The notes beneath the pieces are model-generated. The model was not told the origin of the DNA and did not search any database. It was given only the letters and a program-made list of their open reading frames with translations. Of a stretch of 64,000 nt of DNA, positions 7,800 to 62,950 are shown one piece after another; position 1 is the first letter of the stretch, and each line of letters opens with the position of its first letter. The stretch is from an uncultured Acidobacteriota bacterium. Its GTDB lineage: Bacteria > Acidobacteriota > Thermoanaerobaculia > UBA5066 > DATFVB01. A program made the position numbers and the translations under genes. The DNA is taken from NCBI GenBank assembly GCA_963813155.1, contig CAWEYG010000003.1, forward strand, positions 32,001 through 96,000, in the 5' to 3' direction.

Positions 7800-8216
7800 C
7801 TAGAAGGGCACGTCGTCGTCGTCGTCCGGGGTGCCGGCGGGGGCGACAGCCTGCGGGAATTCACCGCGCGCGGCTCCGTCGACCCGGGGAGAGAGCATCA
7901 GAACATTGTTCGCCTTGATCTCGGTCTTGTAGCGCTTTTGCCCGCTCGCGTCGTCCCACGACCGTGTCTGCAGGCTTCCCTCGACGTAAACCATTTTTCC
8001 CTTGTGAAGGTACTCGCCGCAGATCTGGGCGAGCTTGTCCCACGCGACGATCGAATGCCATTCCGTCCGCTCCTGACGTTCGCCGGTCGTGCGGTCCTTC
8101 CACGTGTCGGTCGTGGCGATGCGGAATTTCGCGAGGGCGGTGCCGCCCTGCGTCGTCGAAATTTCGGGATCCGCTCCGAGGTGGCCGATCAGGATGACTT
8201 TGTTGACGCTTGCCAT
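7800..8216 (-). CDS. ssb: Single-stranded DNA-binding protein
   Basis: 'SVNKVILIG', 'TEWH', acidic tail DDDDDVPF. Confidence 0.97.
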
Positions 8217-8265
8217 GTCTTCTTCCTCCTCATGTTGTAAGGCGAAATCTTAACCCGAAACGCGA

Positions 8266-8400
8266 TCGCTCGGACTGCTCGGGTTTAGCCCCAGCGCCGG
8301 CTCGGCAAATCTCTTCGACCCTCGGCCGCAGTTCGCTTCCCTCGGGATCTCAGAGATCAGCCTGCGCCGACGCGTTGACCCGACCCCTCGCTCCGAGCGA
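8266..8400. repeat. Structured intergenic element, copy 1 (long imperfect hairpin; core 8287-8380 shared with 62006-62100)
   Basis: Core matches copy 2 with 10 substitutions and 1 indel; outer arms TCGCTCGGA (8266-8274)/TCCGAGCGA (8392-8400) also pair. Confidence 0.85.
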
Positions 8401-8415
8401 GCTTACAATCTCGGG

Positions 8416-9972
8416 GTGACATCCCCGCTCAAGACGCTCTCCCGCGAGACGGCCGTGTACGGCCTTTCGACCGTCATCGGACGCTTTCTGAATTTCCTGC
8501 TCGTGCCGTTCTACGTGAACGTGCTTCGCACGCGGGTCGAATTCGGAATGCAGACGACGCTGTATGCCTACATGGCTTTTCTTTCGGTCGTCCTGCCGCT
8601 CGGGCTGGAGGGGGCGTATTTTCGATACGCGGCCCGCGCGGAGGGCGAGGCTCCCGAGCGGGAGCGGGAGCGGCGGCTCTTCGGGACGCCGTTCTGGACG
8701 ATTTTCCTGTTCGGCCTGCCGGCGGCCGTCGCCCTGTTTCTTCTCGCGCCTTCGATCGCGATTCCCGTCTTCGCGGACCCCTCGCACGACCTGTCCGCCT
8801 TCCTGCCGACCCTCATTCGCATCTTGCGGCTCGCTTCGGGGATCCTGCTGTTCGACGCGCTCGCCGTCGTTCCCTTTGCGGCGCTGCGGCTGGAGCATCG
8901 CGCGAAAGCGTTCACGGCGCTGAAACTCGGCAACATCGCGCTCACGCTCGCGCTCAACTTTCTCTTCGTCCTGAGATGGCGGGCCGGAGTCGAGGGGATC
9001 TTCCGGGCGAACCTGATCGCATCGGCCGCGACGCTCGCGGCGGTCCTCGGGATCTGCGCGTCGAAAGTCGCGTTCCGTTTCGATCGTTCGATCTTTCTCC
9101 GCATGCTCCCGTTCGGCCTCGGCAACGTTCCCGCTTACCTCGGGGCGATGATGGTGCAGGTCATCGACCGGCCGATCGTCCAGCGCCTGAAGGGCCTCGA
9201 CGAGGCCGGCGTCTACCAGGCCAACTACCGCATGGGGATCGCGATGATGGTCCTCGTTTCCATGTTCGACTACGCGTGGCGGCCGTTTTTTCTGCGCCAG
9301 CACGCGACGCACGGAAACGCCGCGAAGCCCCTCTTCGCGCGCGTCTTCACGTACTCCGTCCTCGTCCTGATGCTCGCCTTCCTGGGGATGTCGTTCTTTC
9401 TGCCGTGGTTCGTCGGCGTGCGCCTTCCCTTCGTTCGCCGTTCGCTGCTGCGGGCGGACTACCTCTCCGGAACCGGCGTCATCCCGATCGTGCTTTTCGC
9501 CTACGTGTTCCAGGGCTTCTACACGAATTTCATCGTCGGGGTCTATGTCCGCGAGAGGACGCGCTGGCTGCCGGTCGCGACGGGCCTCGCGGCGGCCGTC
9601 AACGTCATTACGAACCTCTGGTGGATTCCCCGATGGGGGATCCTCGGGGCGGCCGCCGCCACGCTCGCGGCCTACGTTGTCATGGCCGCGACTCTCTACG
9701 CGGTGTCCCGGCGCATCTATCCGATCGAGTACGAATGGGGAAGGGTGCTCAAGATCTTCGTGATCGTGCTCGGGGCGTACTTCGGCGCCCTCGCGATCGG
9801 GGCTCCCTGGGCGAAGGTCGCGGCGTTCGGCGCGGCGATCGCGCTCCTCTTCGCGACCGGGTTCTTTCACGCCGGCGAGCTCGAGGCGCTCAAGTCTCTC
9901 TTTCGAGCGAGGAGGGCGATCGAGCCCGCGGATCCCGTCGCCTATGCGACGGAGCGAAGGGAAGACGTGTGA
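8416..9972 (+). CDS. Wzx/MOP-family oligosaccharide flippase
   Basis: Polytopic membrane protein; 'ETAVYGLSTVIGRFLNFLLVPFY', 'AGVYQANY', 'GILGAAAAT'. Confidence 0.85.
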   Translation: MTSPLKTLSRETAVYGLSTVIGRFLNFLLVPFYVNVLRTRVEFGMQTTLYAYMAFLSVVLPLGLEGAYFRYAARAEGEAPERERERRLFGTPFWTIFLFGLPAAVALFLLAPSIAIPVFADPSHDLSAFLPTLIRILRLASGILLFDALAVVPFAALRLEHRAKAFTALKLGNIALTLALNFLFVLRWRAGVEGIFRANLIASAATLAAVLGICASKVAFRFDRSIFLRMLPFGLGNVPAYLGAMMVQVIDRPIVQRLKGLDEAGVYQANYRMGIAMMVLVSMFDYAWRPFFLRQHATHGNAAKPLFARVFTYSVLVLMLAFLGMSFFLPWFVGVRLPFVRRSLLRADYLSGTGVIPIVLFAYVFQGFYTNFIVGVYVRERTRWLPVATGLAAAVNVITNLWWIPRWGILGAAAATLAAYVVMAATLYAVSRRIYPIEYEWGRVLKIFVIVLGAYFGALAIGAPWAKVAAFGAAIALLFATGFFHAGELEALKSLFRARRAIEPADPVAYATERREDV

Positions 9973-61202: not shown

Positions 61203-61982
61203 GTGATCGAAGTCGCGACGGCCGCCGCGAAGCGGGCGGGAGAAATTCTGCTGTCGCACTGGCGAAAGCTGCCTCCCGGTTCCGTCGAGGAGAAGGCGAA
61301 GAACGACTTCGTCTCGATCGCGGACCGCGAGAGCGAGCGGGCCATCGTCGAGACGATTCTCCGCTCGTTTCCCGGCGACGGCATCCTCGGCGAGGAAGGG
61401 GCGCGGCGGCCGGGAACGAGCGGGCGCGAGTGGGTGATCGACCCCCTGGACGGAACTTCGAACTTCATCGCGGGATTTCCCTTCTGGTGCGTGTCGATCG
61501 GCGTCCGGCAGGAGGGCGAAAGTCTCGCGGGCGTCGTGTGGGACCCCCTGCGCGAGGAGCTGTACCGGGCCGAGAGGGGGAGCGGCGCGTTTCGCAACGG
61601 CGACCGCCTCGCCGTGTCGCGGCGGCCGTCCGCCGAGGGCGCGTTTCTCGCGACCGGCTTCCCGTTTCGGGAGCATGCGAAGATCGACGAATACCTCGCG
61701 ATCTTCCGCGCGCTCTTTCTCGAGGCGAAGGCGATCCGCCGCGCGGGGAGCGCGGCGCTCGACCTGGCCTGTGTCGCGTCGGGAGTTTTCGACGGATTTT
61801 TCGAGTTCCGCCTCTCTCCGTGGGACATCGCGGCAGGCGCGGTTCTGATCACGGAGGCGGGAGGCGTGCTGCGGGATTTCGGGGGCGGGCAGGACTACTT
61901 CGAGACGGGCGACGTGCTGGCGGGACCGCCGGGTGTCGTCGAGGACATCCTTTCGACAATTCGCAAAATTCGCAGGAGCTAG
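61203..61982 (+). CDS. suhB: Inositol monophosphatase family protein
   Basis: 'WVIDPLDGTSNF', 'RRAGSAALDL', 'PWDIAAG'. Confidence 0.92.
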   Translation: MIEVATAAAKRAGEILLSHWRKLPPGSVEEKAKNDFVSIADRESERAIVETILRSFPGDGILGEEGARRPGTSGREWVIDPLDGTSNFIAGFPFWCVSIGVRQEGESLAGVVWDPLREELYRAERGSGAFRNGDRLAVSRRPSAEGAFLATGFPFREHAKIDEYLAIFRALFLEAKAIRRAGSAALDLACVASGVFDGFFEFRLSPWDIAAGAVLITEAGGVLRDFGGGQDYFETGDVLAGPPGVVEDILSTIRKIRRS

Positions 61983-62005: not shown

Positions 62006-62100
62006 AGCCCCAGCGCCCGCTCGGCAAGTCTTCTCGACCCTCGGCCGCAGTTCGCTTTCCCTCGGGATCTCGAAGACCAGCCTGCGCGGGCGCGTTGGCC
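62006..62100. repeat. Structured intergenic element, copy 2
   Basis: Same orientation and core as 8287-8380; lies between the convergent suhB and usp stops; upstream TCGCTCGG also shared (61986-61993). Confidence 0.85.
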
Positions 62101-62122: not shown

Positions 62123-62950
62123 CTACGGCACGCAGAGAACGGGAACCGGCGAGCGGCGCAGGACGCGCTCGGTCGTCGATCCGAGCACCATCTCCACGAT
62201 CCGCCCGTGGCCGTGGGAGCCGAGCGCCACGAGATCGTGGGCGGGCAGCCGTTTCAGGATTTCTTCGTCCGGGTGCCCGGTCGCGGATTCGAAAGAAACC
62301 TGCACGCCGCCGCCGGCGGCCGCGAGCGCGGCCTTTCGCCTCTTCTCGACTTCCGCGGGGTCGACCTCGACCGTCAGGATGTCGAGCGAGCTGCCCACCT
62401 TCTCGGCGAGGTCCCGCGCGGCGGAAAGCGCCCGCGCGGAACGCTCGGAGGCGTCGAAGGCCGCCAGCGGTCGCGAAAAGCCATCGCCGGCGGCCGGGCA
62501 GACGACAGCCGGAATCGCGAGCTTGCGGAGCAGCGCGTCCGAATGACCGCCCAAAGACTTTCCGCGTTTCGACCCGACGCCAACCGTCCCGAGGAAGATC
62601 GCGTCGGCGTCCTCCGAGGCGCGAAGGAGTTCGTGAACGACGATTCCTTCCCCGACGCGCGCGGAGCCGGCCACGCCCGACGCTTCGAGCTTCGAGCGAA
62701 AGTCCGCCACGACGGTCTCCGCGATCCCCCGCAGAGCCTCGCGCATCTCGCCGGTCAGGTTCAGGAACGGCTGAAAGCCGACCGAGCCCGAAAGGTCCGC
62801 GATGAAGGTCGCGTCCATCATCGCCGTATCGACGATATGAACTCCTTCCACGGCGGCGCCGAGCTTTCCGCCGAGAAAGATCGCGAGGCGGGCCGCGCAG
62901 TCGGAAAACGGGGATCCGTCGAGAGCGACGAGCAGCTTTTTCCAGGCCAT
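62123..62950 (-). CDS. Tandem universal stress protein
   Basis: Two USP domains: 'LVALDGSPFS', 'AFDASERS', 'GSHGHG...LGSTTERVLRRSPVPVL'. Confidence 0.9.
   Translation of the reverse strand: MAWKKLLVALDGSPFSDCAARLAIFLGGKLGAAVEGVHIVDTAMMDATFIADLSGSVGFQPFLNLTGEMREALRGIAETVVADFRSKLEASGVAGSARVGEGIVVHELLRASEDADAIFLGTVGVGSKRGKSLGGHSDALLRKLAIPAVVCPAAGDGFSRPLAAFDASERSARALSAARDLAEKVGSSLDILTVEVDPAEVEKRRKAALAAAGGGVQVSFESATGHPDEEILKRLPAHDLVALGSHGHGRIVEMVLGSTTERVLRRSPVPVLCVP

Follow-up and report, generated by a model that had tools for sequence, protein, structure and literature searches.

A probable non-autonomous, hairpin-forming interspersed repeat in one genus of Thermoanaerobaculia

Two copies in the window and the structure of the unit

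The DNA considered here (the window) is a stretch of 64,000 nucleotides which corresponds to C3:32001-96000 of assembly G000, a genome of 3.81 Mb in 23 contigs with 66% G+C. Two copies of a repeat are found in it, one between divergent genes, namely ssb and a polysaccharide-biosynthesis gene, and the other between convergent genes for an inositol monophosphatase family protein and a universal stress protein. A previous reading, made from the letters alone (hereafter the sequence-only reading), had located the copies at 8287-8380 and 62006-62100, and both are indeed present at these coordinates. The length of about 95 nt given there was, however, too short, since the unit extends further on both sides in copy 1 and takes up the entire spacer in copy 2 (Table 1). 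The gene context was re-checked and is as described; because the copies sit between divergent genes in one case and between convergent genes in the other, the argument that a gene-specific riboswitch is unlikely is correct.

Table 1. Features of the two copies and of their neighbouring genes, in window positions
Feature	Position	Strand	Evidence
ssb, neighbour of copy 1, directed away from copy 1	7800..8216	-	Pfam SSB, E 5.7e-38
Copy 1, whole unit, 142 nt, rod hairpin	8261..8402	- (better-pairing strand)	Related-strain contigs joining 8260 to 8403 or 8416
Copy 1, left arm of outer shell, begins TCGCTCG	8266..8307		Left-shell profile match C3:40266-40307 and alignment
Copy 1, core (inner stem and near-invariant 40-nt tip)	8308..8356	-	Core profile match C3:40308-40356
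Copy 1, right arm of shell, end motif inverted (CGAGCGAG)	8358..8396		Right-shell profile match C3:40358-40396
Polysaccharide-biosynthesis (flippase-type) gene, neighbour of copy 1	8416..9972	+	Pfam Polysacc_synt_3, E 4.2e-11
Inositol monophosphatase family gene, TAG stop abuts copy 2	61203..61982	+	Pfam Inositol_P, E 7.7e-69
Copy 2, fills spacer between two stop codons	61983..62122	-	Sequence; profile match C3:93986-94105
Copy 2, core, GTCTTC/GAAGAC subfamily	62027..62076	-	Core profile match C3:94027-94076
Universal stress protein (Usp) gene, stop CTA (TAG) abuts copy 2	62123..62950	-	Pfam Usp, E 1.3e-30

Pairwise alignment of 8287-8380 with 62006-62100, counted by eye, gives 10 substitutions and one indel, the same figures as in the sequence-only reading. 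Eight of the substitutions fall into four double changes by which base pairing is maintained, again as had been proposed: the stem ATCTCT/AGAGAT of copy 1 appears as GTCTTC/GAAGAC in copy 2 (A-T to G-C, C-G to T-A and T-A to C-G), and CCGGC/GCCG appears as CCCGC/GCGG (one double change, G-C to C-G). The ninth substitution converts a C.A mismatch, which is a G.U pair on the minus strand, to C-G, also as described. The tenth, GTTGAC to GTTGGC in the outer helix, was absent from that reading and likewise turns a C.A mismatch into C-G, so that the hairpin is kept or improved by all ten. This pattern is beyond chance, since the sequence is one of 43 matches found genome-wide and the same four column pairs covary in an alignment of 30 copies. 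The pairs in question are 26/100 (CG in 11, GC in 11), 42/85 (CG in 18, UA in 9), 45/84 (UA in 16, CG in 9) and 38/89 (GC in 26, AU in 2).

Each window copy folds into a single hairpin, more stable on the minus strand. In copy 1 the minus strand reaches -53.9 kcal/mol (z -3.64, with none of 200 shuffles as good) and the plus strand -42.6 kcal/mol (z -2.01); the corresponding energies in copy 2 are -57.8 and -49.0 kcal/mol.

The full unit, of about 142-146 nt, is a rod hairpin in which a near-invariant tip of 40 nt lies within arms that are variable yet complementary. The outermost motif, TCGCTCG, stands at both ends, as a direct repeat in most copies and as an inverted one in 3 of 30. Inward of it come two outer stems whose sequence varies among copies, then a conserved "shell", then an inner stem that exists in two forms (GTCTCT/AGAGAC or GTCTTC/GAAGAC), and finally the tip, whose columns do not vary in 83-87 of 87 copies and which holds two invariant TC/TC internal loops, equivalent to GA/GA on the minus strand. 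Conservation peaks at the apex and is lowest in the outer arms, which are complementary within a copy and different between copies; on folding, nearly all copies give a rod of 30-45 pairs. The shell is present in about 30 copies, and some 8-10 others consist of the tip and inner stems only, with arms that are diverged but complementary. The four bases 5' of the outer stem, read by eye, are CGTC in 5 of 27 copies, GTAG in none and mostly NNTC. The possibility that TCGCTCG is a general intergenic REP was discarded, its enrichment between genes being too mild (0.22 vs 0.15 per kb).

A dispersed family with a covarying, strand-asymmetric fold

The dispersal suggested by the two window copies is borne out genome-wide: 42 matches were obtained in G000 by BLAST and 43 by iterated nhmmer, of which three are allelic duplicates, leaving about 40 loci after merging. 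Most of the contigs C7-C23 of this assembly are 85-97% identical duplicates of regions in C2, C3, C4 and C6. Because small contigs duplicate regions of the large ones at this level of identity, it is suggested that the bin holds a second, related strain, a circumstance that qualifies the copy counts and the completeness figures.

Of 121 genomes of the order, three have the element according to a covariance model (R1), and these belong to genus g1, with 30 matches in G000, 29 in G002 and 5 in G001; the 118 other genomes, which represent 19 other genera, gave none. It is important to note that G002 is an unpublished genome and that every count given for it rests on that assembly. BLAST among 41 related genomes also confines the element to the three g1 genomes, apart from one 28-base match elsewhere (E 7e-4). 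The exact 26-base tip occurs at 26 loci in species-representative genomes (public MAGs), namely 23 in one Thermoanaerobaculia MAG, 2 in an Acidobacteriota MAG and 1 in a MAG labelled Alphaproteobacteria, and a 23-base tip pattern has matches on 22 metagenome contigs. The locus in the MAG labelled Alphaproteobacteria is a short-form copy with a near-identical core, near the start of the locus (L034:583-697, on the 412-kb contig CAVYTN010000002.1), and its flanking ORFs show at most 28% identity to anything in G000. This copy could be due to horizontal transfer, to a chimeric contig end or to a mislabelled MAG.

With regard to described families, cmscan against Rfam yielded no match at gathering thresholds across the 64-kb window, and at E values up to 1, over four loci (12,383 bases), only two weak matches, neither of them on the element. 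A known RNA family or ribozyme was rejected on this basis. In the literature on repeats in Thermoanaerobaculia, no such element was found among the matches listed.

Structural selection had been proposed from only two sequences, and a loss of covariation in a larger alignment would have spoken against it. Two alignments bear on this point. Alignment 1 comprises 30 copies (29 distinct) aligned with MAFFT, with the structure drawn by hand, and alignment 2 (A6) comprises 90 matches (87 distinct) from G000, G001, public MAGs and metagenomes, fitted to the covariance model. In alignment 1, pairing holds for 88.9% of the cells, and both partners have changed in 7 of 33 pairs (35 cells); in alignment 2 the corresponding figures are 89.5% and 23 of 32 pairs (200 cells), so the covariation is kept in the 87 copies. 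The covariation score is 0.088 vs 0.048 shuffled in the former (slid controls pair at 29-52%) and 0.196 vs 0.065 shuffled in the latter (slid controls at most 0.044), and was reached by 0 of 500 shuffles in each, although both figures are inflated and the shuffles overstate the significance, because the copies are related and alignment 2 was fitted to the model. In an independent check, the arms of one and the same copy pair better than arms swapped between copies (mean -47.1 vs -39.2 kcal/mol).

The two strands are not equivalent in this respect. Cells pair in 97.0% of cases on the minus strand vs 88.9% on the plus strand in alignment 1, and in 95.8% vs 89.5% in alignment 2. Variable A.C cells outnumber G.T cells by 31 vs 5 and by 64 vs 24, respectively, when two nearly fixed A.C columns are excluded; counted by columns, the contrast is weaker (19 vs 16). 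With few exceptions, the copies fold more stably on the minus strand, and the difference is often about 10-25 kcal/mol. Tandem G.A pairs or loops, such as those that the minus strand would form at the tip, are stable structures. Taken together, the sequences point to a fold that is read on one strand.

A fold read on one strand could be that of an RNA useful to the host. According to this explanation, the minus-strand hairpin would be transcribed by read-through into 3' untranslated regions and act there as a stabiliser, a processing site or a terminator-like stop, its spread being incidental. Selection on an RNA fold would explain the covariation, the asymmetry fits a G.U pair tolerated on one strand only, and the minus strand has both the tandem GA/GA loops and the more stable folds. 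DNA hairpins, however, are also stabilised by G.T wobble, so that the asymmetry cannot tell RNA from single-stranded DNA.

The tip also carries CCCTCGG twice in direct orientation at a distance of 21 bp, an arrangement that does not vary in 86-87 of 87 copies. Such a two-turn spacing is what a double-stranded binding site of a nucleoid or regulatory protein might show, the palindromic arms being then incidental. A site of this kind predicts neither the strand asymmetry nor the complementarity of the arms, and the position of the copies with respect to promoters is inconsistent, only 4 of 43 lying between divergent genes. We regard this explanation as highly improbable.

Placement, coding insertions, polymorphism and mosaics

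The gene context of all copies was taken from a crude GC3-based gene caller made for this analysis. Among the 43 matches, 13 lie between convergent genes, 4 between divergent genes, 10 and 11 between tandem genes in the two orientations, and 5 overlap gene calls. The host RNA explanation finds some agreement in these figures, namely the excess of convergent over divergent pairs and the 27 of 43 matches at which a same-strand gene ends just upstream of the minus-strand hairpin, and also in the fact that the mRNA corresponds to the minus strand in both coding insertions (see below). The second figure is not significant, however (25 of 40 after merging duplicates by hand, p 0.15), and the tandem pairs show no preferred orientation (10 vs 11). 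No run of T follows the hairpin in the flanks inspected, close strains are without the element at the same genes, and some copies lie between divergent genes or inside ORFs. A host-useful RNA is held to be an unlikely main explanation, albeit one that deserves consideration. For genome annotation, the family explains a recurrent, strongly folding intergenic sequence of this uncultured lineage from soil, and structure alone is no ground for calling a riboswitch or a small RNA at such places.

Stop codons that abut the ends of the element in G000 are TAG in 14 of 23 cases, vs 26% genome-wide (p ~4e-4); the stops at 61980-61982 and 62123-62125 of the window are examples. From the sequences, the element may prefer CTAG or TA sites, or it may carry its own stop codon. 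With respect to GC skew, the copies are oriented 21 vs 17, without bias; a replication-strand bias was discarded for lack of signal, and a lagging-strand mechanism like that of IS608 is consequently not favoured.

In two genes the core is found in frame. In the CtaA/COX15 protein (C1:630334-631368; L072; Pfam E 1.4e-37) it encodes residues 158-182 (..RPEGKRTAAER..), and in a 927-aa multihaem-cytochrome/TPR protein (C17:13938-16721; L071) it encodes residues 643-665 (..RDPEGKRTAAEGRE..), with ..PEGKRTAAE.. as the shared peptide. In both cases, the mRNA strand is the minus strand of the element. The CtaA segment is missing in all three orthologues of genus g2. At the same point of ctaA, a different and shorter insert is present in the unpublished genome G002, and family C, a repeat described below, is present together with a stop codon in G001 (central loop; G001:C11, L084:1940-2010). 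The commoner subfamily of the element contains a TGA in the CtaA-type reading frame, and the GTCTTC subfamily is open in it. An allelic copy, C2:439160-439224, has a 1-base deletion in the core which appears to break the frame.

Comparison of the same sites in different strains shows that the unit is gained or lost as a whole at given sites. At the site of copy 1, contigs of three soil runs have 16-30 other letters instead and in G001:C4 the position is taken by a 17-nt filler; at the site of copy 2, other repeats are found in G001 and in the unpublished G002. C6:221519-221880 is a filled site and C4:3167-3183 its empty counterpart, and at C2:436503 the element is present in one strain and family B (see below) in the second. 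Several further MAG or metagenome loci differ from G000 in presence or absence. The one clean insertion with a short direct repeat is that of metagenome contig L119, in which a 146-nt unit occupies a position where C1:122333 and C1:122334 are contiguous in G000, with the 6-nt direct repeat GGTCCG at both junctions. In one filled/empty pair, the empty site is TTCTAGAG and a TA duplication is possible, while three further sites show the replacement of a few bases and no simple insertion. A uniform TA duplication was rejected, as it was seen at most once and the distance from TAG to TCGCTCG varies between 2 and 10 nt. The "empty" sites could also represent deletions between short repeats.

The repeats differ between the two strains of the G000 bin, and in the fragmented, unpublished G002 many copies are located close to or at the ends of contigs, so that repeats of this sort may interrupt its assembly. 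A separate observation concerns the 5' end of a gene: in L104:1310-1660, on a metagenome contig, compared with G000 C3:783756-783787, a block made of the element and family C replaces 7 bases and seems to provide both the ATG and the first four codons afresh.

The element (family A) is often accompanied by two other repeats, and many spacers have families A, B and C side by side. Family B is a hairpin repeat of about 113-125 nt with some 50 copies in G000 and none in the window (C1:122338-122461, C1:123746-123866, C1:142761-142884 and about 47 more). Its ends are GGGCGGGTGG...CCACCCGCCC and its central part GTCGTAGCAAAG, and it often adjoins the element or sits inside its shell. Family C is a third repeat with GGTGACGGCGGCCAGGGACCCTGCGGAACCCGCAGGCCGCC, found beside several element copies (C6:221560-221700, C10:8080-8160 and C3:496609-496718). 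A further type of nesting was seen at C2:72284-72406 and C1:351318-351440, where about 123 nt derived from a different repeat take the place of the right-hand part of the core, with the same junction in both. An exchange is seen in two strains whose flanks are 91-96% identical: the same shell holds the element core at C4:8022 and the unrelated family B at C6:226854. Seven shell pairs in G000 enclose family B. A shell/core profile search revealed no empty shell in this genome, of the kind that insertion of the core into an existing palindrome would have left.

The swapping of copy interiors, as between C4:8022 and C6:226854, bears on the origin of the double changes. They might arise by template switching at the DNA level within a quasi-palindrome, or by gene conversion between copies, with no structural selection involved. 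Quasi-palindrome correction is an established mutational route. In the same direction, the two main covarying sites occur in every one of their four combinations in alignment 1 (read by eye), which suggests recombination or recurrence. Such mechanisms leave unexplained, however, both the strand bias of the mismatches (64 A.C vs 24 G.T) and the invariance of the tip amid diverging arms, and in low-copy members that have diverged, arms of quite different sequence retain pairing over 30-45 positions. Little credence is given to an origin of the double changes by these routes.

Mobilisation and relation to known repeat systems

The sequence-only reading had also predicted a RAYT or IS200-type transposase as a partner of the element, and none was found: the Y1_Tnp domain (PF01797) is absent from G000 and from both G001 and G002. 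The three carrier genomes are 90.8, 78 and 99% complete, and the Y1 positive controls responded. Y1_Tnp was found in two of three genomes of the sister genus g2, which are without the repeat. The search for a parent insertion sequence in G000 took in the ends of an IS30-family element, DDE_3, TnpB and the IS110 family. Neither DDE_3 (IS630-type) nor TnpB domains were detected, and the single IS110-family gene is located away from the element. The sole multi-copy IS found in G000 is 1.08 kb long and has seven copies (C1:492206-493303, C1:495747-496845, C2:660632-661709, C3:888700-889779, C4:79144-80222, C5:214429-215507 and C8:20202-21277); its transposase, judged by eye from the translation, is of the IS30 family. 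This IS was rejected as the parent because its ends are unrelated to the repeat. A partner gene bracketed by copies was also dismissed, given that the five closest copy pairs enclose housekeeping genes such as der, rnr, sucCD, ndk, relA, secDF and similar ones (translations read by eye).

Of the two readings first offered, a structured non-coding RNA family or a REP-like hairpin element, the second fits, because the element is dispersed, mostly intergenic and restricted to one genus, shows site polymorphism and covariation, and has no Rfam match. The RAYT/IS200-type partner that this reading predicted is the part that did not hold in the three carrier genomes. The preferred interpretation, to which we assign a probability of roughly two in three, is that of an interspersed repeat which is non-autonomous, forms a hairpin and measures about 142-146 nt; it would be of the general kind of REPINs, MITEs and RPEs and specific to one genus of Thermoanaerobaculia (Acidobacteriota). 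Within this general kind, we class it as a new family and place it neither with the REPINs, since no RAYT was found in its three carriers and it has no consistent tag, nor with the classical MITEs, since its terminal repeats appear not to be conserved and no parent IS was found among the families searched in G000.

If the element is such a repeat, the minus strand would form the hairpin, whether in single-stranded DNA or in RNA, and a putative trans-acting enzyme that copies or moves the unit would recognise its invariant tip. Spreading would cease in lineages that have lost the fold or the tip, and this selection would give rise to the compensatory pattern; any benefit to the host, for instance from RNA hairpins at 3' ends, would be secondary. 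A bolder and rather unlikely version of the same idea is that of a REPIN-like replicator without Y1/RAYT, in which a one-strand apex of 40 nt (two tandem G.A loops and a GAACU loop) would be recognised by a non-HUH enzyme of this genus that copies the unit, the apex being a cassette exchangeable with family B inside the same shell.

The systems that invite comparison are, in the first place, the REPINs and RAYTs of Pseudomonas and E. coli. REPINs and the element are both short, non-coding, mostly extragenic and lineage-restricted, with tens of copies; in each, a pair of inverted arms folds, as single-stranded DNA or RNA, into a single long hairpin, and clustering and higher-order arrangements are found in both. 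For REPINs, compensatory changes between the two sides of the hairpin have been reported to be common (PMC3116915). There are also differences. REPINs usually occur with a RAYT, typically flanked by the repeats, whereas no Y1/RAYT gene was found in any of the three element carriers; the invariant part is the apex in the element and, in REPINs, the two terminal REP 16-mers, with a less conserved spacer between them; no consistent tag is seen in place of the GTAG or CGTC of REPINs and REPs; and the copy number is about 40, as against hundreds for REPINs. The element is a further population of hairpin repeats with clear compensatory evolution and no RAYT found in its carriers, unusual in having a conserved apex instead of conserved ends, and it offers a test case for what else can mobilise such elements and for whether it is the DNA or the RNA form of the fold that is read.

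CGTC-tagged REPs are comparable in one respect, as these abundant palindromic repeats are described by Di Nocera et al. (2013; PMC3733652) as having no associated tyrosine transposase. They are, however, single palindromes of 20-40 bp, while the element measures about 145 nt, has a unique conserved apex and shows CGTC in 5 of 27 copies only. The BIMEs of E. coli and the BOX elements of pneumococcus are mosaic repeat clusters, and binding of IHF or gyrase has been reported for BIMEs. What they have in common with the element is modularity, its shell holding either the element core or family B; the sequences are unrelated.

Classical MITEs such as Correia, RUP and Nezha are small, non-coding, hairpin-folding and insertion-polymorphic, as the element is, and the element also shows a possible TA or CTAG bias (TAG in 14 of 23 abutting stops). 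In contrast to them, the element seems to have unconserved terminal inverted repeats, and neither a uniform target-site duplication nor, among the families searched in G000, a parent IS with matching ends was found.

Finally, the RPEs are palindromic repeats which are described (PMC10969869) as occurring not only in intergenic positions but also, in frame, within unrelated genes, to which they contribute a stretch of peptide. Both RPEs and the element are palindromic, of about 100-150 bp, with no known transposase and with in-frame copies in genes, and they are likened here by behaviour and not by sequence. The host phylum of the RPEs is unrelated to that of the element, coding insertions number 2 among about 40 loci as against 44 in R. 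conorii, and the larger subfamily of the element, unlike RPEs, has a TGA in the frame concerned. The in-frame copies in CtaA and in the multihaem cytochrome indicate that repeats of this type can reshape proteins outside Rickettsia.
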